A stretch of DNA of 64,000 bases from a virus: positions 32,001 to 96,000 of IMG/VR virus record IMGVR_UViG_3300007511_000003. One strand, 5' to 3'. Under the pieces are notes generated by a model that ran no database searches, had not been told where the DNA came from, and saw only the letters and a list, made by a program, of their open reading frames with translations. The translations under genes were made by a program, and so were the position numbers. Shown here one piece after another: positions 4,553 through 57,944 of this stretch; the first letter of the stretch is position 1; every line of letters begins with the position of its first letter.

Positions 4553-5078
4553 CACCTTCACGATTACACGAAAAATTGAAATTGATGCGGGTCATCGTGT
4601 CCAAACACATGGGTCCAAGTGCCGTAACATTCACGGTCATCGTTATACCGTCGAAGCCGTGTGTAAAGGGTTCCTTTACTTGGAAGGGGAACAAACGGAC
4701 ATGGTGGTGGATTTTGGGTTCTTGAAGACCTGCATGATGGATATTATTGATGTAGGGTGTGATCATGGTTTTATTCTGTCCATCCAAGATCAGCAGCTTT
4801 GTCCGGTATTCATCCATGACTTTGGCCGACACGTCTCTGCCATACAGAAAGCGTGTGATGAGAAGGGGTATTGGAATTCGCAAGAAAGTGACGTTGAGAC
4901 TCTCCAAGGTACCAAGATTTATGTGGTACAGGGCATTCCAACCGCAGAGGTCTTGGCACAACACTGGTACCAACGTCTCAAAGAAGAGGTTCAAAAGAAA
5001 TTTGGAAAGGATATCCTACACCAAGTGCGGGTGTATGAAACACCTAACAGTTGTGCAGTATATCCCGGACACGTTTAG
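4545..5078 (+). CDS. queD: 6-carboxy-5,6,7,8-tetrahydropterin synthase QueD
   Basis: GGAGG RBS; DAGHR, CRNIHGHRY, MVVDFG, DHGF, PTAE, VYETPNS. Confidence 0.92.
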   Translation: MGNTFTITRKIEIDAGHRVQTHGSKCRNIHGHRYTVEAVCKGFLYLEGEQTDMVVDFGFLKTCMMDIIDVGCDHGFILSIQDQQLCPVFIHDFGRHVSAIQKACDEKGYWNSQESDVETLQGTKIYVVQGIPTAEVLAQHWYQRLKEEVQKKFGKDILHQVRVYETPNSCAVYPGHV

Positions 5079-6243
5079 GTTCCATGTGGTACCAGTTATG
5101 TGGTAACGGGAGTCGGCTACCAGCAGGGTCCATCACAAGGAGTTTAAATCGGAATCCAGCTTTTAAGCAGGCTTTCGCTTTGGCTTGAGTCATTTCCAAT
5201 CTGGACCTTCTACCACAGAAGGTCCATAAGGATTTGACTTCCACTAATATGTTACGTATAGGAATCCAAAGGTCTGGATAGTATTTCCTATTACGTCCAC
5301 CCAAATGGTAGGGAACCACAGGTAGATTATCATTGGCGCTCGTTTTTATATTTTCGGCAGGTATTTCTGTATTGGCCAAAATCCAAAGGATGGCTTGTGG
5401 TTCATACCCTTGGACTTGCACAAAGCGGTCTCCGAGTTTAAAATCCTTAGGTTGGAAAGCCTTTTGTCGTGCACATACCGGGCACCCTGAACCACGAATA
5501 ACCATGCTTGGTTCAGCTTTCCATGTGTGGTTTTTAACACATTGGTGTCGGATGGCTGAGTTCGCCCCAACATATTTTTCGAGAACTTTAATCGTATTAC
5601 CATGCATGTGTCTTACTTCCCGTAGGTATTGTTGGGGGTGTTTTCTTTTCCGTGATTGGGCACATGAGGGGCAACCACATCCAGAAGTTACTGATTGAGT
5701 TGATGCCGCCCATCGGTGATGACATAGATGGCATTTGTACCGAGATTTTTGTCGAGAACCCGGATTATACTCTAACACTTGGATAGTTGATCCATGGATC
5801 CTTCTTAGCTTTTTCTCGTAGGTAGTTAATGGTACCTTGGTTCCACGATGACGGTCCGCACAAATGGGACAATTGGTAGCTCTCAGTGCTCGGTAGGGAG
5901 AAGTCTCCCAATCGGTACTACACCTAAGGCATCGGTGTAATATAAAATGATTGGCTCCTCGGTATTGTTCCAAGCAAATTAAGTAACCTTGGTGCTTAGC
6001 TTTTAACTGTTCCAAGTAGTCCTCGTGGGTCCATGTTCGATTTCGTGTGTTGCAAGCAGGACAACCAGCACCTCTTAAAATAACGCCTGGTTTGGTGTAC
6101 CATTTATGGTTACACTCAAGGCATTGGTGTAGGATTTTAATTCTTCCTTTGACGTAGGATCCGAGGACTTTAATTTTATTTCCATGTGGTAGCTGTTTGA
6201 TCGCCTTTTTGTAGGTTTCTGTAGTATACTTAACACCGCGCAT
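5044..6243 (-). mobile_element. Free-standing putative homing endonuclease: repeated Zn-ribbon units plus a C-terminal PD-(D/E)xK nuclease
   Basis: Four CxxC..W...GCPxC-type repeats; YYPDLWIP...VEVKS; antisense to its neighbours, AT-rich, 3' end overlaps queD; GGGAG RBS before ATG 6243. Confidence 0.8.
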
Positions 6244-6286
6244 CCTATTTCTCCCGTGTATAAAAAGGTTATCTATTAAATTAGTA

Positions 6287-6294
6287 TGTAAATA
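6287..6294 (+). promoter_or_regulatory. TGTAAATA putative phage promoter motif
   Basis: Recurs upstream of several genes (see findings); about 25 nt before the pyrE ATG. Confidence 0.6.
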
Positions 6295-6318
6295 GACTTC
6301 AATAGGGAGGTAAACAAA

Positions 6319-6951
6319 ATGAACGACATTGATTGGGAACAAGAACTAGGGGCTGGAGGCGCCCTCTGGATCCATGACGGCAATGGGCCTCACGCCCTGC
6401 TTACATCTGGCAACCACAGTGATGGCTTCTTCAACGCCAGCCAGGTAATCAAACACCCGACCTTGGTTTTGGATGTTTGTCTCCACTGGAAGGACCTTAT
6501 GGCCTCCCATGACTTTCATTGGGTAATCGGGTCTGCCATGGGAGTAGTAACGTTAGCCCACCAAATGGCTTTAATCCTGGGAGGGTCTATTGGTGGAGAC
6601 GTGTATACAGGCTTTACCGAACCCATGAGGGATGATGACGGCGAGAAGCAAATGGTCCTTAAGAGGTTTACCTTGGAACCGGGCCAACAAGTGTTGGTAG
6701 TCGAGGATGTATTAACCACCGGTGACACCACACGGAAGACCATCCAGGCTATCAAGGTACAAGGAGCCAAGGTAACGATGGTAGCAGTTATACTCAACCG
6801 AAGTGGTCACCGACATATTAATGGCCTACCTATCGTGTCCTTACTTGATAAACAACTCCAGATTTGGCCTCCCCATATGTGCCCACTCTGTGCGGACGGT
6901 TCTGAAGCTGTCCGCCCAAAAGAAAACTGGGACCTGTTAACAGCGTCATGA
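6319..6951 (+). CDS. pyrE: Orotate phosphoribosyltransferase
   Basis: LLTSGNHSDGFFN, GSAMGVV, VLVVEDVLTTG PRPP motif, C-term CPLC. Confidence 0.88.
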   Translation: MNDIDWEQELGAGGALWIHDGNGPHALLTSGNHSDGFFNASQVIKHPTLVLDVCLHWKDLMASHDFHWVIGSAMGVVTLAHQMALILGGSIGGDVYTGFTEPMRDDDGEKQMVLKRFTLEPGQQVLVVEDVLTTGDTTRKTIQAIKVQGAKVTMVAVILNRSGHRHINGLPIVSLLDKQLQIWPPHMCPLCADGSEAVRPKENWDLLTAS

Positions 6952-31028: not shown

Positions 31029-32301
31029 AATCATCTGGGCGTTTCAACTCACCTTTATGTTCCCAACGGACAAGGGCTTCGACTGCTTCTACCTTGTTGG
31101 CCCCCAGGTTTATTTTAGGTTGGTATACCAGATAAAACTCACCTTTTTCCAGACCTTCACGGACGGAGGCTTCTATTTCAACACGACGGCAAGCTTTCTC
31201 TTGCATTTCTGGATGATAAAAGTGGAAGGTACCACGTCCAGCATTCTTGGATTCATACATTGCACTGTCGGCACTCTTGAGCAGGTCTTCTTGGAGTTCT
31301 GCGTCGTCTGGGTAGACTGAGATACCGATTGAACAGGAGATGAAAATGTTCTGCCCACACAGCTGGAAGGGTAACGTTAACTGTTCCAGAATCTTACGGG
31401 CAACCAACTCAACATAACAGGGATGGGTGATACCTGTCAGGATAGTAGTGAATTCATCCCCTCCAAGACGGGCTACAGTATCCGACTGCCGCACGCAACT
31501 CTTGATACGGATGGCTACCTCCCGCAGCAAGTCATCCCCTGCGTCGTGTCCGAGAGTGTCATTCACCCACTTGAAACGATCCAGGTCAATAAACATTAAC
31601 ACAACCTGTTCTCTGTGCCTCTTGGCGGCATACATAGACTGTGACAAACGGTCCAAAAATAGGCTGCGGTTGGGTAACCCTGTCAGTTTGTCCCTCTCTA
31701 CCTGGAGTTTTAGCTGGTGTTCCAAATACCTCCGTTTGATTAAACACGCGACTGTCGAAGCTACCACGCCAAGGAAATCCTGTTCTTCCTTATTCACAGG
31801 ATGCCCTTCTTCCAGATATAGGTTAAGTACTCCCAAGAGCTTATCAGCATCCATGATGGGCACTACATAATGCCCATGAGGAACCATGCCCTCGAATGTA
31901 AAGTCATGTTGGTGGTCCACTTTATCGGCGAAGAGGAGGCTCTGTGATTGCAGTACTCTACCACACAGACAATCCCCTAGTTTTATAACCGCGCATTGTA
32001 CCTTCTGCTCTTCCAGGAACCCTTGCTGTGCCATCAAGTGTAGGTGACCTGACTGTTCGTCTACCAGGAACACTCCTCCTTTTGGCACCAGTTTAAACCA
32101 AGGTATGTCCAGGATGATCTTTAAAAACTCTTGTAACTGGGATTTCAAAGGCATCTGGTCAAGCGAGGTCAACAACAGACGGTTAAGTACCATCACCGAG
32201 TTAAATTTTTGTTGGTTAGAAATATTAGGCTCCTGTTGCATAAACCAAGCGGCGGATGGTGTCACCCCACAATCTTGTACGGCTGGTTTTTCTGTTAACA
32301 T
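30943..32301 (-). CDS. GAF-GGDEF diguanylate cyclase with truncated EAL domain
   Basis: GAF (GDCLCG, HGHYVVPI); DKLTGLPNR, FIDLDRFKWVND.LGH..GD, RQSD...RLGGDEF, SIG, AD.AMY.SK; EAL runs only to EALVRW...FIPVA. Confidence 0.92.
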   Translation of the reverse strand: MLTEKPAVQDCGVTPSAAWFMQQEPNISNQQKFNSVMVLNRLLLTSLDQMPLKSQLQEFLKIILDIPWFKLVPKGGVFLVDEQSGHLHLMAQQGFLEEQKVQCAVIKLGDCLCGRVLQSQSLLFADKVDHQHDFTFEGMVPHGHYVVPIMDADKLLGVLNLYLEEGHPVNKEEQDFLGVVASTVACLIKRRYLEHQLKLQVERDKLTGLPNRSLFLDRLSQSMYAAKRHREQVVLMFIDLDRFKWVNDTLGHDAGDDLLREVAIRIKSCVRQSDTVARLGGDEFTTILTGITHPCYVELVARKILEQLTLPFQLCGQNIFISCSIGISVYPDDAELQEDLLKSADSAMYESKNAGRGTFHFYHPEMQEKACRRVEIEASVREGLEKGEFYLVYQPKINLGANKVEAVEALVRWEHKGELKRPDDFIPVAGVLPRHWPQPERQWQAGPLEGLP

Positions 32302-33918: not shown

Positions 33919-34713
33919 TTACTCCACTGAAAGTAAGCTAGAGTCCTCCTGGATAGCACTGTAAAACGCGGGAGAACTTACAGCACTGGTTTCAAAACCT
34001 TGGACCCCATGTACCTGCCGATACACCAGCCTGTTACCTTTCTTGTAGAAATCAACAGGCCGGTTGGCAGATATATGACTACAATGCCCCAGTTCCTTCC
34101 CACAGTAGGAACAACTGTACTGGTCTACGTAGGCACCCATGGAATAACTGTTCATCTGCCCACTAAGGATATCCTTCACCAGGTCAGGATCCTTAGTGCG
34201 GTCAAACGCCAAGAGCTCCAGGAACTTCCAGACCTTTCCTTGACCGAACTCCGGCATCTTACGGAGGTAGGTATCGGCGATAACACCACGGGCTTTTGAC
34301 AGAACAGTGTTCTTATGTTCAACAAAACATGGTTTCCCTTTAAACGTCTTGAACGCCTGCATCCCTGCTTCAGGGTTGAACGCTACCATTGATGCCAGCG
34401 GGAACGCCACACCATTCCTGTTTGGTAAGTCTGTTGGAATCGTAATAACCGGCACCATCACAAAGTCCTCGAGGTTGTCAGAGATCTCGTAGGTTTTGCT
34501 GGCAAAAGGTAACCATTGGCTGATGTCTAGCGAGGTATCTCCGCTTTCCATTCCAAGGACCTCATTCCGCATTACGACCCTGCCCGAGGCTAAGGTCACA
34601 TCTTTTCGTTTGACCGCCTGGTGGACCTCCAGAGGGTTGCAAAGGGCTCTTCCACCGAGATCATAGTTGGCTGTCTTGTTCACAGGACGCCGACCTGGCA
34701 AAAATTGTGTCAT
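33919..34713 (-). CDS. Probable prohead protease / capsid maturation protein
   Basis: Directly downstream of portal; PNRNG, EHKN...GVIAD, YSMGA...CSYCG, FETSAV..PAF. Confidence 0.6.
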   Translation of the reverse strand: MTQFLPGRRPVNKTANYDLGGRALCNPLEVHQAVKRKDVTLASGRVVMRNEVLGMESGDTSLDISQWLPFASKTYEISDNLEDFVMVPVITIPTDLPNRNGVAFPLASMVAFNPEAGMQAFKTFKGKPCFVEHKNTVLSKARGVIADTYLRKMPEFGQGKVWKFLELLAFDRTKDPDLVKDILSGQMNSYSMGAYVDQYSCSYCGKELGHCSHISANRPVDFYKKGNRLVYRQVHGVQGFETSAVSSPAFYSAIQEDSSLLSVE

Positions 34714-37700
34714 GACACGTCTCCATAGGGATTCCGACGACCAATAAAACGCTGTGCCATTCGTTGTCGGCGTTTGTTGTTGGGTTCCTTGGCAATCTCA
34801 CGGACCGCCTTGATTATCTTATCATTGATGGCTTTGTTGGCACGTGTTTGGTTGAACACGTGCCGTTTCTTGCCAGCTTTGTCGGTCGTAGACAACTCTG
34901 CGAGGTCTCCGAAATCCCTGTCCGTAAGGGTCTGGCGTTTGATAGACCGCAGACCAGAGAAGGAAAAATCATCGTCGTCCTCGTCATCACCTCCACCTTT
35001 AAGTTCCTTGATTCGGTCCTTAATCTCCGCGTCTTCCTCAAGGTCACTCATCAGGCTGTCAACAGATAGACCACCGGCAGCAGCCCACATCCGCAGAGGG
35101 ACCGGCACTCCCTTCTCGGTCAGGGTCTCCAATACTGTCAGGTACTCGGTGTCCGCCTCAGGCCGAAGGGCTTTATGCCAGTGCATGGTTGGAATAACCA
35201 GTTTACTGGTATCAGCCGTATACCACTGTACCATGTCGGTTGTCAACATAGGAGTTGTCCGACGGGCCGCCGACTCCTCAGGTGTCCTGTGTCGATAGTA
35301 AGGGTTAGGCTTTGGAGCATCCTCTTCCTTCTCAAAGCCATTGATAACCGAGATCAATGGAAACAGCTTGTTGTAAAACACCCTGTGGGTGGTCATGTCA
35401 CGGAACGCCCGCATGTGTTCAATAAACACTGACAACGCTACTTCCATCGTTCCATACGACATGTCTCCACTGTTATGTACCACGATACCGTTAGACACAA
35501 AGGCAGGTGCCACTTTGTGTTCCATGGTCAGGTCATACAAATGGGAAGTTCCAGCTGGTTTTACCTCCTGTACCGGGTCAAAGAAGTACTGGAGTTCAGA
35601 CAAGCGCACCAATCGTCTGACAACTACAGGATCAATTTGTTCCAGGATATCCAATAAATCGGAGTATAGACCTTTCTCAAAGTTAGAGTAGGGCAGGACT
35701 CCATCTCGATGTTTACCCTTCCCAACCGTTGATCCCAAGTATTTTGAGGTGCGGTGACCAAAGCCTTCAATTAAAACTGGTTGGCCTTCCGCATTTTCAA
35801 ACCACTCACCAACATTGGTTTCTCTGCGGATCCAACGGGATGCCAAGAAGTTTCGGATAGGTGGTATAGGTACCCCGAATGTACGTCCTTGTAAATCCGC
35901 TTCACGTACATCGTACTGGTTTTTTTCAGTATGGGCCAACCAAGGACGTAGACGCCTGTAAAATTTGTTCCCAAAATACCGAATAACACTTAACCATTTG
36001 GGGTGGTCAGTCATCCGAAAGCTGGGTACCCCGAGGTCCGCCAATAGTATCTGCATTTGGTCCAACAATTGGCCACTACTACTGCAAAAACGCAGAGCCA
36101 CAGTATCTTTCCTTTGGGCAACAGAGCCATCACCGTCAAGAAAAGCGGCAATGAAAGCCAATCGGCATTCCGTCGGGGCCTGAAGGATGGACCAAGGTAC
36201 TACTCTGTAGGCAGACGGATTGTTCACCTCGGATTTCCGTTTCTGTACGACCCCGAGTTCCTTCAACCAATGTACGACCTTTACCTCCTCGAAGGACATC
36301 TTGTAAACATCCGAATTGGAGGTACCCGTCACACCCTTAATGTTATACCTACGACCTTTCGGGCTACTTAAGGTCCGTTCAGGAACCACACCAAAAACAG
36401 AGGTAAAAGCCTCTTGGTATCGGTCAAGGACTCCCAGATTCGAATTCGTGATCGAAACCACGTTTTTCTTCTTAAGTGTGCCCTCAGACACGATAAGTCC
36501 TAACACATAGGCCAAATCGGGTGTCATTTCTGTCGGTTTGGTTGCAGCTTTTTGGGACCAACCTCCTTTAACCAGATAATCTGTGAGGTTCAGCCTCAGG
36601 GGTTCCGTCGCCTCCTGCCCCTGTGTGTCAATGCACAGGTAATCGGATTTTTGAAGGCGCTTCACAGGAACCCATTCCGGACGTAGGTCTTGTCCCAAAG
36701 TCAGTACCTCATGCTTCTTTGTTGTTGTGACATTATACCCGGATTGTGTAGTGGTTTTGACAACAGGTGATTTACCCCGGTACCACCAATGAATGGCTTT
36801 TGCAAACTCTCCAGAACGCCCCTTGACCAACAAATCTGTGGTGTACCCTTGGTCTTTACGTAGGCCCCTACGATCATACAATTGGTCAATAGGAATTAGG
36901 CCACGTTCCGTGTGAACATACGAGCCTTCCGCCAAACACAAAAAGCCCTCATTTATCCCAAGAGCCTGCATCTTGAGGTTGGAGGTCTCTGGAATAGTAT
37001 CCGTCCATTTCCAGGAGTCACCGCCGCTCCTGATTTCATTGGTATTCACATCATCACGTGTGGCAATCATGGCACCAACAGGATCTAAGTCCGCTTGTTG
37101 GAACAGGGCTACGATAGCCTTGAGCTCCTCATCCGTGGGTTCCCAATCCTCATCCCCTGCCACGATATGCAGGATCGACCGTTGCCTCTTTGCTGCCTCT
37201 GTCAGTGTACCCCTGTACAGGATCTTCTCCAGAAAGTAAATAGGCAGCAGCCGATGATACAACGAGGTACCACGATTGTTAAAGGTAAAGCTGCGCCTGG
37301 GTACATAAAGCGTGGTCAACGGATCGAGCGTCACCTCTGGGGCTCGCATGGCTCTCAGCATACCCGGGGACAGTCGTTCCTTCAGACGTTCGATGTGCGG
37401 TTCCCGGCTGTTGATGAACTCCTTCATGTCGGCCCCAATTTTCATCTTAATCAGAGGATCGGTGCCATACAAGGGAGTCGGAATCACAGTACAGTCGGCT
37501 ATGTTCTGTGGTATCAAATCAGTAAATAATTTCTCCGCCTTTTTAAACACGAGGGTGGATACGAAGGTGCCGAGCACGAGGTAATCTACACTCATTTCAG
37601 GCATTAGACTACGCATGTTCAGGCGGTCCAAATTGGACTCGAACACCTCCAGTTGCCTCTCATCGGCTCCGCTAAGAGTCCAATCACTGAAGGGTAGGGT

Positions 37701-37961
37701 ACTCATGAGGTCTACAGCCGCGCCGGCGATAGGGTCGTGGTAGTAGATATCCGTGTAAATGTCAAACAGTTGGCGAGGGTCGGAGGGTATTACACCATCC
37801 AGCATACCGTCCTTGATGGCTCCGAGTCCGGTATAACCCATCTGCATGTTGACATTACCACCACCCATACCAAAGGGTGACATCTGATAACTGGATCTTA
37901 CCTGAGGACGTTGGTCTGTCACAGATGCCCGTACGGCTATCTTCCGGCTACTTTGAAACAC
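34710..37961 (-). CDS. Portal protein containing an intein
   Basis: Downstream of terminase; about 594 aa of extein; DIYYHDPIAGAAVD; intein inside. Confidence 0.75.
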   Translation of the reverse strand: MFQSSRKIAVRASVTDQRPQVRSSYQMSPFGMGGGNVNMQMGYTGLGAIKDGMLDGVIPSDPRQLFDIYTDIYYHDPIAGAAVDLMSTLPFSDWTLSGADERQLEVFESNLDRLNMRSLMPEMSVDYLVLGTFVSTLVFKKAEKLFTDLIPQNIADCTVIPTPLYGTDPLIKMKIGADMKEFINSREPHIERLKERLSPGMLRAMRAPEVTLDPLTTLYVPRRSFTFNNRGTSLYHRLLPIYFLEKILYRGTLTEAAKRQRSILHIVAGDEDWEPTDEELKAIVALFQQADLDPVGAMIATRDDVNTNEIRSGGDSWKWTDTIPETSNLKMQALGINEGFLCLAEGSYVHTERGLIPIDQLYDRRGLRKDQGYTTDLLVKGRSGEFAKAIHWWYRGKSPVVKTTTQSGYNVTTTKKHEVLTLGQDLRPEWVPVKRLQKSDYLCIDTQGQEATEPLRLNLTDYLVKGGWSQKAATKPTEMTPDLAYVLGLIVSEGTLKKKNVVSITNSNLGVLDRYQEAFTSVFGVVPERTLSSPKGRRYNIKGVTGTSNSDVYKMSFEEVKVVHWLKELGVVQKRKSEVNNPSAYRVVPWSILQAPTECRLAFIAAFLDGDGSVAQRKDTVALRFCSSSGQLLDQMQILLADLGVPSFRMTDHPKWLSVIRYFGNKFYRRLRPWLAHTEKNQYDVREADLQGRTFGVPIPPIRNFLASRWIRRETNVGEWFENAEGQPVLIEGFGHRTSKYLGSTVGKGKHRDGVLPYSNFEKGLYSDLLDILEQIDPVVVRRLVRLSELQYFFDPVQEVKPAGTSHLYDLTMEHKVAPAFVSNGIVVHNSGDMSYGTMEVALSVFIEHMRAFRDMTTHRVFYNKLFPLISVINGFEKEEDAPKPNPYYRHRTPEESAARRTTPMLTTDMVQWYTADTSKLVIPTMHWHKALRPEADTEYLTVLETLTEKGVPVPLRMWAAAGGLSVDSLMSDLEEDAEIKDRIKELKGGGDDEDDDDFSFSGLRSIKRQTLTDRDFGDLAELSTTDKAGKKRHVFNQTRANKAINDKIIKAVREIAKEPNNKRRQRMAQRFIGRRNPYGDVS
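35472..36938 (-). mobile_element. Cis intein with LAGLIDADG endonuclease (489 aa)
   Basis: FL/CLAEGS start, TKKHEV block B, LAYVLGLIVSEG and FIAAFLDGDG, YDL...FVSNGIVVHN/S end. Confidence 0.93.
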
Positions 37962-52692: not shown

Positions 52693-53465
52693 TAGTAGTA
52701 CCCTAACAGTTTATGTTGTTGAGCAACCACCCGGATGTTATATCCTTGGTTCCAGTTCAGGATCATCTGGGTGATGCGTTGGAGTTCCTTAGTAGGAACA
52801 GGGCCCTTGGTGTTGTCAGCACAGGGCGTAAGGATGATTGGGTGTGACATAAAAGCGTGGTCTTGTAACAACCCACTGAAATGTTGTAATAACCAATCCA
52901 GGTCTTCTTGGTCTCGTACCACTGCCTTGGCATATACCTGGGGCATCTTCTCGATAACTTGGTAAAGGGCTGCCAGCACGTCGGCCCCCAATTCGACACC
53001 TGTATTTGGCGTCTTGATATCCAACGACACCTGATCAAAACAGTTAAAGGCTTGGCTGTCAATGATAGTACCGCTAGTCTCCAGGTTTGTTCGCAACCCT
53101 CGCCGTCGAAGTAAAGTCGAAAGGCGGGTTACTTGGGGGCGGTAGTGGAGAGGTTCGCCCCCTGTAATGGAAACCTCCACCACTTTACCTTTGACTATCT
53201 TTACCAATCGGTCCGCAAGCGAGGAGACCTCAGCCAAGGGGTGTTCTCCTACTGCCCAACTATCCTTGGTATCACAAGTAGTGCAGCCTACAGCACATCC
53301 GGATACACGGATAAATAGCCTGGGTACCCCTATGTTTATACCCTCCCCCTCCAAAGTCTCCTGGATTTCCATCACAGGGAGAACATCGTCGGGCACCTCA
53401 TGGATTCCCAGTTTCAAGAGGTTACACTTAAACTTGGGTACCACCACATTGATCGGCTTAATCAT
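52692..53465 (-). CDS. queE: 7-carboxy-7-deazaguanine synthase QueE (radical SAM)
   Basis: TLEGEG..IG.P..FIR.SGCAVGCTTCDT, ITGGEP, LETSG, QQHK. Confidence 0.9.
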   Translation of the reverse strand: MIKPINVVVPKFKCNLLKLGIHEVPDDVLPVMEIQETLEGEGINIGVPRLFIRVSGCAVGCTTCDTKDSWAVGEHPLAEVSSLADRLVKIVKGKVVEVSITGGEPLHYRPQVTRLSTLLRRRGLRTNLETSGTIIDSQAFNCFDQVSLDIKTPNTGVELGADVLAALYQVIEKMPQVYAKAVVRDQEDLDWLLQHFSGLLQDHAFMSHPIILTPCADNTKGPVPTKELQRITQMILNWNQGYNIRVVAQQHKLLGYY

Positions 53466-55534
53466 CCTTCGACTCCTTCATAAAATTCAGTGTTCAGCGG
53501 GAAGTGTTCGTCCAACCAAGGTTGTATCCGTTTGCCTTCCGCACGAATCATTGCCATTGTCTCTTCTACATTTACATTGTAGCCAATTTCATCGCGTTGA
53601 CGTTCTAACGCCGACCGGATGTTGTGCAGGAGGTTTTTCTTGGTGTAATCCCACTTTTGCATGGCGTCCCCGGAAGCCCCTATGTCAAAGTCTACCGCTA
53701 GCCCTACGTTAAACTGGAAATGAAACGTCTCTGCCACTTTCTGCTCAACGCCGACTGTAGTACACCACTCCAGCAATCGGAGGACCAAAGGAATATACCG
53801 ATAGTTCACCTCCACTTCAACGCTGTCATGGACCATCATGGACGGGTAAAGGTTCGTTGGAACCCCTATCGACTGGAGTTCTTCCCCGTCAGGATCCAGC
53901 CCATATAAGTCCTGTAAGCTTTCCCACAGTTTTTCACTGTACAGGCGTGCAGCAAGGAATCCCAACTGGCTGGCGAATCCCTGAATAGGGCTGTTGGCCG
54001 CCCGTCGTTTCATGGCGGACACCAGACCAGGAACCTCTGTCATGTAAGCAAACAGGTTTCGCTTGAACCCCAGAGGGTTGTAGGTGTACAAACGGTCGGC
54101 ACTAAAATCGCATGTCCACTGGATCCAGTTGCCTGCCTTGAAAAACTTGGCAAAGAAACCGCCCTTCACCTTTTTCATCTCAGCTTCTGACTTTCCAGTG
54201 TCCCGAGCCAAAGACCTATCCGACTTACCATACATGGTCCCAAAGGTAATCACCTTTGAATCCTGCCGTTGTTCCTTTGTCACCTTCTCTACAGGTGTGC
54301 CAGTAAAGAACTGGTAGTTAAGTTTGTGGGGGTCGCCCTTCTCTTTTAAGTCGTCTCTGTGCCGAGCGGTCGGTTGCTGGCGGAACCGCAGACGGAGGTT
54401 GTGCACAACCTTAAACATCATGGCCAGCACGGCATCCTTGCTGATGATACCCCAACAACGCACCTCATGAGCGGCATAATCAAGCTTAATAACCAAACAA
54501 CCCACACGGGCAGTGAATGAACGTTTGATAAACTTGGCATCAGGACCGTGTTGGGGTGTTTGTTGGAGGCTTGGTTCTGAGCTATTACTGCGCCCTGTCA
54601 CAACATCCTTAAATCCATACTGCGGACGTAACCTGTGGTCCACCTTCCCGTCACGGGATTTACCAATCTTCTTGTAGAAGGCGTTGACATAGGATGTGAG
54701 CAACTTCTTGAGCTTGGACAAGGTGGTGAAGTCAGCCACCTCTGGATGTTCTTTGTACTTTTTCTGGAATGCGGCGTCTATTGAAGCGGCATCATCCTTA
54801 CCTGTTGACAGAGGTTCCAGCCCCATCACCTGGATAAACAACATCTGTTTGTGGGCGGCTTTATTGGGATCAAATACCCAAGCCTGGGTGTTACCAAATA
54901 TACCACCGCCTGGGGGAACCCCTTGTACTTCACACAACAATCGGTTGGCGGTCTGGACATGTTCTGACTCTCTCATCTGAGCCGCGAGTTCCTTCCGTTT
55001 GGCCAGCACTGGGGACCGTCGGCGGTCGCGGAGCAACAACAGGTATTCGATATCCAGATGGGCTCCTGTTTGTTCCATGCCACTCATCACATGGACAGTA
55101 TCCGACATCTGAGTAAGCAATAAGCGCCTATAAAACCTTCTGTAGTTGTGTTTACCTACCCGTTGGAGGGCCGCCCTTTCTTGCTGGAGTTCATGGACAC
55201 GGAAGCAAGCTTGAGTATCCATTGCACAATAGTCTAATACCTCGTCAGACAGGTCTCTGTTGGCTATGTCTTGACGGTCATCTTTAGAAAACCTGGCGTC
55301 ATAGTAAAAGGCGTTCCCATAGTAGGCCAATATTTGTGCCAACCCATAAGCTGGTGTACCGTACAGCATCAACACCTTCATGTTCTCGTCAAGGCAATTG
55401 TGAACCAAAACTGGTTTATCACTAATTTCATTACAAATAAATAGGTTGTGATTATCCTGTACCGTAACATCACATACCATAGGTGGGGAGTCAACCACCT
55501 TTACCGACTTAACTCTTACAGTTCGGGTAACCAT
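53462..55534 (-). CDS. polA: DNA polymerase family A, C-terminal part, with N-terminal split-intein C-fragment
   Basis: IntC ending PVLVHN/C; YCAMD (exo III), TGRSNS..PSLQQ, DYAAHEVR, RQDSK.ITFG.MYG, NSPIQG, VHDS. Confidence 0.93.
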   Translation of the reverse strand: MVTRTVRVKSVKVVDSPPMVCDVTVQDNHNLFICNEISDKPVLVHNCLDENMKVLMLYGTPAYGLAQILAYYGNAFYYDARFSKDDRQDIANRDLSDEVLDYCAMDTQACFRVHELQQERAALQRVGKHNYRRFYRRLLLTQMSDTVHVMSGMEQTGAHLDIEYLLLLRDRRRSPVLAKRKELAAQMRESEHVQTANRLLCEVQGVPPGGGIFGNTQAWVFDPNKAAHKQMLFIQVMGLEPLSTGKDDAASIDAAFQKKYKEHPEVADFTTLSKLKKLLTSYVNAFYKKIGKSRDGKVDHRLRPQYGFKDVVTGRSNSSEPSLQQTPQHGPDAKFIKRSFTARVGCLVIKLDYAAHEVRCWGIISKDAVLAMMFKVVHNLRLRFRQQPTARHRDDLKEKGDPHKLNYQFFTGTPVEKVTKEQRQDSKVITFGTMYGKSDRSLARDTGKSEAEMKKVKGGFFAKFFKAGNWIQWTCDFSADRLYTYNPLGFKRNLFAYMTEVPGLVSAMKRRAANSPIQGFASQLGFLAARLYSEKLWESLQDLYGLDPDGEELQSIGVPTNLYPSMMVHDSVEVEVNYRYIPLVLRLLEWCTTVGVEQKVAETFHFQFNVGLAVDFDIGASGDAMQKWDYTKKNLLHNIRSALERQRDEIGYNVNVEETMAMIRAEGKRIQPWLDEHFPLNTEFYEGVEG
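55397..55534 (-). mobile_element. Split intein C-fragment (46 aa)
   Basis: MVTRTVRVKSVKVV...VCDVTVQDNHNLFI...VLVHN followed by Cys+1. Confidence 0.9.
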
Positions 55535-56593
55535 ATGAAGACCTCAGAAATACGTATGTTAGTGGAGCGGCGAGTGTTTGACCAAAAAATAAAGTTAACT
55601 CAAAAATTTGTACGAGACATGTCACCAAAACTCTTAGGATATTGCCAAAAGGAAGCTCTGCGAATTTATGGAGGTAAATACCCACCCTGGTGGGCTATTC
55701 TCTATAAAGTTATTTACAAGGACCACTATCGGTGCCGGTGTGGGTCCGAAAAACTAGCTTGGCAGGGTTGGGAAGGCGGTCTGGCGGAATACTGTTCCTG
55801 TAAATGTGCAGGGGCCTCTCCGGATGTTTTGAAAAAGAGGGAACATACTTGCCAACAAAAGTACGGTACTAAACATGTACAATCGGTACCTAGTATACGT
55901 GCTAAATTTAAACAGTCTATGGTACGAAACCAAGGAGTAGAATACACAGCCCAAAGCCCACGCTTAAAAAAGAAGATGCGTAAAACACTCAAAAAGAACC
56001 ATGGAGTCGAAGAAACTTTCCATTCCATGGTTCTTTATGGTAAAGCAAAGGCCACCATGTTACAGAAATATGGTGCTGAGCATAACCAACAGGTCCCCCA
56101 CCTGTTTGAACAACAACAAAGGTCAGGTTTTAAAATACGTACCATAAAAGTTAATGGGAAACGGTTTAGGGTACGTGGAGGGGAAGGTCATGCTATAAAA
56201 TACCTTGTCCACGAACTTGGGTGTTCTATAGACGAAATTTACACGACGGCGGTACAAGGTAAGCCATCCATCCCTTGGTATGACAATAAAAACAAGTACC
56301 ACATATATCACCCTGACATCTATGCCAAAGTTAAAGGGCGATGGTTTATTATTGAAGTCAAAAGCACGTATACAGCGGGTATAACCACCAAGTCTGGGGC
56401 TGAGTTTTACCGGCTACGTATGAAGGCAAAGGGTGTGGAAGAGGCCGGTTACAATTTCAGGACACTCCTTGTCCATTATGGACGGTCCCTCCCTCTTGAC
56501 TACCGTCCACTTGTTATTAAAGACATACACCAAAAGACCAGAAAACAGGTTAGGTCTGAAGTAAAACTTCATCGTCAGAGGTTAGGTTCTTAG
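55535..56593 (+). mobile_element. Free-standing putative homing endonuclease (KYG-type repeats plus PD-(D/E)xK)
   Basis: YCSCKC, repeated T...KYG units, YHPDIY...IEVKSTYT; inverted between the two polA halves. Confidence 0.82.
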
Positions 56594-57944
56594 CTTTTAC
56601 ATAGGAACCTCGGGTAACCGACCAAACCTCATGGTCTTCAGTAACGCGAATGGATCCCCCTTCATAGGATATTTCCACCATTCGTTGGTCTGTTGGGTGG
56701 GTAGAAGTAGCTAAAAGTGGTTTATATTCTTCCTGTTGTGTTTTATGGTTATATGATAAAACCTGAGGAGGATTCCCCATAACCACCAAGTCTTTCATTT
56801 GTACCATACCACGTTCCGTTACCACCCAAGACTCTGGGTGTATACAGAACTCACCGGCAATGGTGTCCCAAACAGGCCAATAAATGAATGGGAGATCGAA
56901 CTCCTGACGTATAATACGAAGGTCAAATTTGGCGTTGTGCATAACCAAATAACGAGGGGATTTAGGCTGCCATTCCACTCGTTGCCCAAAGTAGGCACGT
57001 AGTTCCTTAAATATTGTGCGGAACTCTGATCCTGAGAATGGGGTATCACGATGGTGTACAGGGAGGATAAAAGCCCTGTCGGGATTGTCTGAGAATTGGA
57101 GGGTCTGGAGTTGGTTATGATGAACGGACAGGTTCTTGGTCTCTGAGTCAACGGAAACCACGGGAGCCCGTTTAATGACCCTCATCATACGCTTAAACTT
57201 GCTCAACGTATCGATGAGGATTGGATTTGGCCGCACCTCGGAGGCCGTAAATGGGAGTCGGTCCAAAAACGCCGACATGAGAGTGCGTCCGATATATCCA
57301 AGAATATTGGCCTGGGTGATGGCTTCATCCATCTTTGTCTGACTCTCGGCATCGGAGTCATTGTCCATGTCGGTACCACGCAAAAAATAGGTGTGGTCGT
57401 ACCGTATGGTGTTGGTGACCAGGACAGGCTTCCCTCGCACTTTGATAGCATGGGGCCAACCCCTTTTATGTGAAATGTCATCCACCCGGGGTAACAGGGA
57501 TTCTGCCGCTTCATCCCCAAATACTATCACGTTCGTCGGATCCATCTTGCGAACAAACGCCTTTACTCGCTTAGAAGCAGCATCATTGGCGTGCTTACGT
57601 CGGGCACCTTTGAGGTGGTAGGTCTTGAAGAAATTGAAGTTGATGGTGGCATAAGCCACCGATTCCTCAATGGATTCTGGGTTGACAAGAGCACATTGTC
57701 GGCGGGCAAATTGTAGGAGGTTCGTGACAACGGTGGCGCCGGTTCCTCGATCCAATAACGCCTTTTCCTTGAGGTCTTTACCATCCACATGTTCTACCAC
57801 CAGAATAACACGGCGCCTGGCGGTCTTCCAGTTTTTCGTTATAGGGATAGCTACGTCAAATGCGGGGCATTCCTTTGGGCTCCAACCCTCTGGAAGATCG
57901 TTTTGGAAAGTCACATAACGCATCTGCCGGCGGTCTGTTATCAC
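56550..57944 (-). CDS. polA: DNA polymerase family A, N-terminal part (UDG-like plus 3'-5' exonuclease) ending in split-intein N-fragment
   Basis: VDSET (exo I), HNAKFD (exo II), WDT..GEF/CIHPES intein start, TEDH block B, then stop. Confidence 0.9.
   Translation of the reverse strand: MITDRRQMRYVTFQNDLPEGWSPKECPAFDVAIPITKNWKTARRRVILVVEHVDGKDLKEKALLDRGTGATVVTNLLQFARRQCALVNPESIEESVAYATINFNFFKTYHLKGARRKHANDAASKRVKAFVRKMDPTNVIVFGDEAAESLLPRVDDISHKRGWPHAIKVRGKPVLVTNTIRYDHTYFLRGTDMDNDSDAESQTKMDEAITQANILGYIGRTLMSAFLDRLPFTASEVRPNPILIDTLSKFKRMMRVIKRAPVVSVDSETKNLSVHHNQLQTLQFSDNPDRAFILPVHHRDTPFSGSEFRTIFKELRAYFGQRVEWQPKSPRYLVMHNAKFDLRIIRQEFDLPFIYWPVWDTIAGEFCIHPESWVVTERGMVQMKDLVVMGNPPQVLSYNHKTQQEEYKPLLATSTHPTDQRMVEISYEGGSIRVTEDHEVWSVTRGSYVKAKNLTSDDEVLLQT
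56553..56846 (-). mobile_element. Split intein N-fragment (98 aa)
   Basis: CIHPESWVVTERG...VLSYN...IRVTEDHEVW..RGSYVKAKNLTSDDEV. Confidence 0.9.

Follow-up and report, generated by a model that had tools for sequence, protein, structure and literature searches.

A family A DNA polymerase gene of an uncultured marine jumbo phage, fractured at a split intein around an antisense nuclease gene

How might a phage obtain a working DNA polymerase from a gene that is broken in two, with another gene running in the opposite direction through the break? The question is raised by a 64,000-nucleotide stretch of viral DNA (hereafter the window; positions 32,001 to 96,000 of IMG/VR record IMGVR_UViG_3300007511_000003), in which the family A polymerase gene polA is present as two open reading frames (ORFs), polA-N and polA-C. 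Both lie on the minus strand, 1015 bases apart, and the interval is wholly occupied by a plus-strand ORF of 352 amino acids. The record that holds the window is 168.9 kb long, with a completeness estimated at ~65%, and the full phage genome is probably ~260 kb. Its source is an uncultured marine jumbo phage, a distant relative of the PaBG/Lu11 group. A sequence-only reading of the window had seen here a naturally split intein with an inverted homing endonuclease between its halves. Sequence comparison and structure modelling lead us to conclude that the fractured polymerase is very probably restored by class 1 protein trans-splicing, and the finding is one member of a large cassette family, not a single locus.

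polA-N (56550-57944, minus strand) encodes 464 residues, a 366-residue N-extein followed by a 98-residue amino-terminal intein half (IntN) and then a stop codon. IntN (56553-56846, minus strand) begins with Cys1 (codon TGT, 56846-56844), carries the block B motif TEDH (56642-56631) and ends in an acidic tail. polA-C (53462-55534, minus strand) opens with its own ATG and encodes 690 residues, comprising a 46-residue carboxy-terminal intein half (IntC) and a 644-residue C-extein. IntC (55397-55534, minus strand) contains the block F aspartate Asp22 (in 55439-55471), finishes in VHN with the block G pair His45-Asn46, and is followed directly by Cys+1 (TGC, 55396-55394). The positions and lengths given in the sequence-only reading for both ORFs and both intein halves were all reproduced, and the gene between them is inverted as described, being on the plus strand with the two polA pieces on the minus.

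Are the two ends truly halves of one intein, with the catalytic residues credited to them? Hint-type profiles match both. The NCBIfam model of the intein N-terminal region (TIGR01445) covers polA-N residues 367-440, starting on Cys1 (24.8 bits, cut-off 24.5). The Pfam Intein_splicing model (PF14890, length 155) is divided between the halves, IntN taking positions 10-93 (19.5 bits) and IntC positions 121-155 (18.7 bits). The stretch skipped by both is the usual insertion region of intein endonucleases, agreeing with the claim that the gene is broken at their customary site. The residues of a class 1 intein are complete: Cys1, the block B Thr-x-x-His (TEDH, IntN residues 69-72), the block F Asp, His-Asn and Cys+1. 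Cys1, Thr69, His72 and Trp75 are invariant in an alignment of IntN with 26 relatives that are 33-61% identical; Asp22, His45, Asn46 and Cys+1 are invariant across 16 IntC sequences. An exhaustive phmmer search with IntN returned 441 proteins at E <= 0.001.

A complex of the two halves was predicted with confidence (ipSAE 0.95, best control 0.00; runs agreeing in at least 98% of contacts; partner pLDDT at least 88), on a mark for ipSAE that is passed by 58 of 80 solved complexes and by 2 of 110 mismatched pairs. Solved structures exist for split inteins, and the pass is therefore to be read as likeness to them and not as independent proof. IntN and IntC are thus predicted to associate. The earlier description of an acidic IntN and a basic IntC stands as to the signs, which are complementary; the complementarity itself is modest (net charge -5 for IntN, +3 for the first 20 residues of IntC). 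Compared with solved inteins, the family profile finds the NrdJ-1 split intein best (E 5e-12), with the DnaX and DnaE inteins weaker. The pair differs from the solved or published split inteins that we found, which leaves room for the suggestion that it may be new.

Would ligation of the flanking pieces give a sensible polymerase? The joined exteins amount to 1010 residues and read WDTIAGEF|CLDENMK across the junction, exactly the product that had been foreseen. Vibrio phage GR11A has a one-piece PolA that reads WDTIAGEY|CLDENLK at the same place, and the alignment is free of gaps there. Overall, the joined exteins are 38-40% identical to the PolA of GR11A (40%) and of Xanthomonas phage PhiXhv-12, which are encoded by single genes (1017 and 1022 residues). 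These two were the closest among the tblastn matches listed for the polA-C ORF; the search gave 369 matches in 50,697 phage records, and those listed all start at residue 46-49, just past IntC. The gene neighbourhood is also common to the window, GR11A and PhiXhv-12: a large SNF2 helicase gene, a small gene, polA and a radical-SAM gene. A search of the phage collection at the DNA level gave no match, and a pattern scan of IMG/VR with the polA-C ORF gave no relative.

The motifs of the polymerase fall on either side of the break in their proper order. Exo I (57129-57158) and Exo II (56913-56939) are in polA-N, ahead of IntN; Exo III (55205-55237) and polymerase motifs A (54449-54484), B (54221-54268) and C (53810-53836) are in polA-C, all on the minus strand, and the series is collinear once the intein is removed. 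PHROG 17 runs through both pieces in the same way, polA-N corresponding to profile positions 468-770 and polA-C to 776-1275. The exteins are therefore collinear with intact homologues, as the proposal demands. Pfam recognizes both activities (DNA_pol_A, E 2e-36; DNA_pol_A_exo1, E 1e-8). Upstream of the exonuclease motifs, polA-N residues 91-205 (57330-57675, minus strand) give a weak match to the UdgX-type uracil-DNA glycosylase (UDG) family (E 2e-4). This UDG-like match at the N terminus fits the UDG-exo-pol architecture known from jumbo phages of the PaBG/Lu11 group (PMC7412058). The locus bears the marks of a naturally split intein: a stop codon closes IntN, IntC is equipped with a start codon and a ribosome-binding site of its own, and the order of the exteins matches that of an intact homologue.

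On this evidence, the following course of events is proposed. The two pieces would be translated separately, polA-N stopping after IntN and polA-C starting from its own ATG and ribosome-binding site. IntN and IntC would then associate into one HINT fold, within which an acyl shift at Cys1, transfer to Cys+1 and cyclization of Asn46 would lead to a peptide bond between the exteins. The predicted product is the 1010-residue polymerase, with the junction AGEF-CLDEN lying between Exo II and Exo III.

What, then, is the gene in the gap? The plus-strand ORF (55535-56593, 352 residues), antisense to polA and free-standing, belongs to Pfam DUF7487 (PF24308; 99.4 bits against a cut-off of 27, E 4e-28) and to PHROG 3339, which is annotated 'homing endonuclease'. 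It has a four-cysteine element (55733-55807), three to four 'KYGV' helical repeats and a C-terminal domain bearing E217, a PD motif (56306-56323) and ExK (56348-56365), all on the plus strand. Ten homologues have the same four-cysteine element, three to four KYGV repeats and C-terminal domain, with E217, P260-D261 and E274-x-K276 invariant. An AlphaFold model (pLDDT 83) was compared widely with known structures, and its C-terminal domain (residues ~194-347) came closest to TnsA (Z 7.5) and Hjc (7.0), ahead of Vsr (6.2), I-Bth0305I (5.3) and I-Ssp6803I (5.3). Paralogues of the nuclease give weak matches to TnsA-like models in Pfam. When the PDB was searched with the nuclease sequence, nothing meaningful emerged, and the N-terminal four-cysteine element and KYGV repeats have no solved counterpart there. 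We read the gene as encoding a canonical PD-(D/E)xK nuclease with a restriction-endonuclease-like fold, on the strength of motif and model. Its general fold is common to the Vsr-like family, although the motif (E217/D261/E274/K276) is not the Vsr-like Asp-His-Asp set; by Z, it is nearer to TnsA and Hjc than to Vsr, I-Bth0305I (of the EDxHD family) or I-Ssp6803I. A 22-nucleotide inverted repeat (86% complementary, 6-nucleotide loop) lies inside the gene at 55990-56039 and would form a hairpin in either transcript.

With a TnsA/Hjc-like catalytic domain joined to zinc-finger and helical-repeat modules for DNA binding, the protein would most likely be a homing endonuclease, spreading a cassette of the two intein halves and its own gene into alleles that lack it. 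This homing role is likely, and less certain than the trans-splicing. Since the gene is antisense and flush with both halves, the nuclease cannot belong to the intein polypeptide, and the intein is kept split.

Is the arrangement peculiar to this phage? The phage was assembled from two other samples with its three genes identical in layout and with 0 and 11 substitutions in 7 kb, and the 464-residue polA-N gene was called in independent assemblies too. The assembly with 0 substitutions (L020) has a 114-nucleotide insertion relative to the window (53285-53534), near the 5' end of the radical-SAM (QueE-like) gene, whose product is then 295 residues long instead of 257. In at least seven diverged lineages we observe the same order of polA-N, antisense DUF7487 gene and polA-C, with all ORFs intact and endonuclease identities of 37-51%.

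Beyond these, the best 149 other IntN matches include 61 PolA clusters of this type, 53 of which end in IntN and only 5 of which have a contiguous intein. The intein occupies three insertion sites: site a, following AGEF as in the window (28 split clusters); site b, inside Exo III at LDY|C.MD.Q (at least 10 clusters); and site c, ~314 residues into the C-extein (6 clusters). Middle pieces of polA, bounded by IntC and IntN, occur in some phages. In one three-piece polA, site b holds an antisense DUF7487 gene and site c a zinc-finger Vsr-like gene on the same strand; a four-piece polA has three antisense DUF7487 genes. The same intein family, again with an antisense DUF7487 gene, fractures an SNF2 helicase, and the same cassette type fractures a ResIII/DEAD helicase of the cultured and completely sequenced Dickeya jumbo phage JA11. 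There, an intact 375-residue DUF7487 ORF, unannotated in GenBank (L026:4350-5477, plus strand; MH389777.1 ~129462-130589), lies antisense between two coding sequences both annotated 'putative DNA repair helicase', the first ending in IntN and the second starting with IntC. The paper describing JA11 does not mention inteins. The DUF7487 gene runs antisense at each of the loci examined, and Cys+1 is kept at all three polA sites and in both fractured helicases, SNF2 and that of JA11.

In this phage group, inteins have colonized replication genes repeatedly. Among the relatives there are one-piece PolA genes and a mini-intein that is contiguous at site a, so that, together with the fractured forms, each stage of the gene-breaking model put forward by Dassa et al. 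is represented. Site labels cluster on a tree of IntN (7 changes, 17.5 when shuffled), and one origin per site is possible; the resolution of the tree (52 rows, 96 columns) does not suffice for a count of moves from site to site.

Three other explanations of the locus have to be set against this record. In the strongest, the intein does trans-splice and the antisense gene is a domesticated or general phage nuclease, used for host DNA degradation or the exclusion of co-infecting phages and sitting in a tolerated gap. Two more DUF7487-type nucleases are encoded outside inteins in the same genome, and free-standing phage nucleases, such as those of the T4 seg and mob genes, can mediate marker exclusion rather than classical homing. 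At all the loci examined, covering three polA sites and two helicase genes, the nuclease nevertheless occupies the canonical insertion point for an endonuclease in this intein family, a constancy that ties it to the intein and argues against chance. Alleles free of the nuclease exist besides, as one-piece PolA and as the contiguous mini-intein at the same site, which are the states expected in a homing cycle. We therefore regard a general nuclease as unlikely, though the best of the three alternatives.

It is more improbable still that the intein halves are splice-dead and act as a non-covalent clasp between two polymerase subunits. Such assembly of a fractured phage enzyme has a precedent in the NrdA of phage Aeh1, as cited in PMC2677866 and PMC3045599. 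A clasp would not need the class 1 splicing residues, yet all of them are invariant among the 26 IntN and 16 IntC relatives despite identities of 33-61%, and Cys+1 persists at the three polA sites and both helicase loci.

That the locus is a mis-assembly, a pseudogene or one orientation of an invertible segment, as the metagenomic origin of the sequence might suggest, can be dismissed: independent assemblies from other samples have the same structure, all three ORFs are intact in diverged relatives, the fully sequenced JA11 carries the same type of cassette, and no inverted repeats bracketing the nuclease gene were found.

How closely are the fractured gene and the nuclease gene packed? The nuclease ATG (55535) abuts the IntC ATG (55534), giving CAT|ATG at 55532-55537 with zero spacing, and at its other end the nuclease gene overlaps the last 44 nucleotides of polA-N, within IntN. 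The Shine-Dalgarno sequence of polA-C (GAGG, 55542-55545, minus strand), 7 nucleotides before the IntC ATG, is the antisense of nuclease codons 3-4 (Thr-Ser). Each gene's expression signals therefore sit inside the other gene. A Shine-Dalgarno sequence precedes every IntC start examined by 7-13 nucleotides, here and at six of six other loci; the two start codons are spaced by -2 to +1 nucleotides in four lineages and by 13-34 in three more. We infer that a transcript of polA would have to cross the entire nuclease gene in antisense, and nuclease and polymerase expression would then probably interfere with each other. A scan with promoter and terminator consensus sequences gave no usable promoter on either strand (7 promoter-like hits against a shuffled mean of 6.4, 10 terminator-like against 6.4). 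The heptamer CTAATTT occurs at 55422-55428 (plus strand), 113 nucleotides upstream of the nuclease ATG, as well as upstream of a nuclease paralogue (G000 38278) and in the spacer of a second split intein, in dnaX. With 17 copies in the genome, about the chance expectation, it is not enriched and is a candidate promoter element only.

Several points weigh against the reading of a trans-spliced polymerase with its homing nuclease. Taken alone, the PF14890 score of either intein half falls below the 35.8-bit gathering cut-off, and only the summed score exceeds it. A Foldseek search of the nuclease model against the PDB gave no match at E <= 0.001 (the weak matches were all to PD-(D/E)xK nucleases), and the matches of the wider structural search are middling, with Z up to 7.5. 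The polymerase had been called an essential family A enzyme: its family is confirmed by the DNA_pol_A match, whereas essentiality hangs on the single polA found, in a record whose ~65% completeness leaves room for a second polymerase. Splicing, the activity and target of the nuclease, and antisense regulation are what we infer from the arrangement, the conserved residues and the models.

Could the split mini-intein and the antisense DUF7487 gene together be a distinct composite mobile element? The nuclease would then recognize the intein, or travel with it, in place of being tied to one host gene, and the abutted start codons and antisense overlap would couple the nuclease negatively to polymerase expression. 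We put this forward tentatively, as a possibility somewhat less probable than its opposite. If true, it would account for the occurrence of the cassette at three polA sites and in two helicase genes (SNF2 and ResIII/DEAD), and also for the three- and four-piece polymerases, whose split inteins are closely related and yet must pair correctly.

The same genome holds other elements of these kinds. The second split intein, in dnaX (G000:C1:26729-28553, upstream of the window), has an IntN 32% and an IntC 43% identical to those of the polA pair; two split-intein pairs that coexist in one phage are natural candidates for orthogonal pairs. A contiguous LAGLIDADG intein lies in a 1083-residue ORF at 34710-37961 (minus strand; Intein_splicing 40.5 bits, LAGLIDADG_3 E 1e-13), whose host protein received no identity from Pfam. 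The polA endonuclease has a free-standing paralogue of 432 residues (5044-6342, minus strand), in which a DUF7487/TnsA-like nuclease domain at the C terminus is combined with other DNA-binding modules; four treble-clef zinc fingers (DUF4379) and CapR-homology domains are present. A third DUF7487-type nuclease is encoded downstream of the window (G000:C1:102723-103760, minus strand, E 3e-15). In one relative with polA fractured at site b (L007:8215-11056, minus strand), the adjoining SNF2 helicase of 2070 residues has an Intein_splicing match too.

These results add a large natural split-intein family, with at least 50 diverged PolA clusters and helicase members, to the few that are used for protein ligation. 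Relatives with up to three homologous split-intein pairs in one polymerase offer further candidates for orthogonal pairs, and raise the question of how the order of ligation is ensured. The layout also raises the hypothesis that a selfish gene and the gene that it interrupts, which is probably essential, control each other by transcriptional and antisense means. As the same type of cassette occurs in a cultured phage, Dickeya phage JA11, splicing, homing and regulation are testable in a tractable laboratory system.

How does the locus compare with fractured genes already known? That such genes with interposed free-standing endonucleases occur in phage metagenomes, as the sequence-only reading stated, is well founded: they were described in 2009 from ocean metagenomes by Dassa, London, Stoddard, Schueler-Furman and Pietrokovski (PMC2677866). 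The hosts in that work were gp41 (gp41-1 to gp41-8), NrdJ (NrdJ-1), IMPDH (IMPDH-1), NrdA (NrdA-2), DnaE, ligase and terminase; PolA was not among them. The polA locus resembles those genes in having its break between blocks B/N4 and F, an endonuclease whose 3' end overlaps an intein half, and complementary charges at the interface. In the published layout, three genes lie on one strand with a spacer of 27-51 nucleotides and the endonucleases are GIY-YIG or Vsr-like. The polA locus departs from it: the endonuclease is antisense, the spacer is absent (CAT|ATG), the nuclease is of the DUF7487 type with E...PD...ExK, and the host is a family A polymerase; a definition built on a same-strand endonuclease and that spacer would leave the locus out. 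The fractured-gene arrangement now takes in jumbo-phage polymerases of family A, and an uncharacterized nuclease family in antisense and with zero spacing.

Contiguous inteins are known in bacterial Pol I. In our literature search, incomplete in its coverage, no paper turned up that describes a family A polymerase with a split intein, the DUF7487 family, or a fractured gene whose endonuclease is antisense. The split PolB intein of Pseudomonas jumbo phage MIJ3 (PMC6892783) likewise fractures a replicative polymerase around an interposed homing endonuclease gene; it differs in its family B polymerase, its HNH nuclease and its unrelated intein. Like the polA pair, the cyanobacterial DnaE split intein (Npu/Ssp) belongs to class 1: it has Cys1 and Cys+1, its IntN is acidic and its IntC basic, and it is split at a comparable point. 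The two have weak profile similarity. The DnaE halves, however, are far apart in the genome and have no endonuclease, whereas the polA halves lie 1 kb apart around an intact nuclease gene. The principle of the fractured gene is already known; what stands out here is the size of the family, its multi-piece polymerases and the consistent antisense packing of the nuclease gene.

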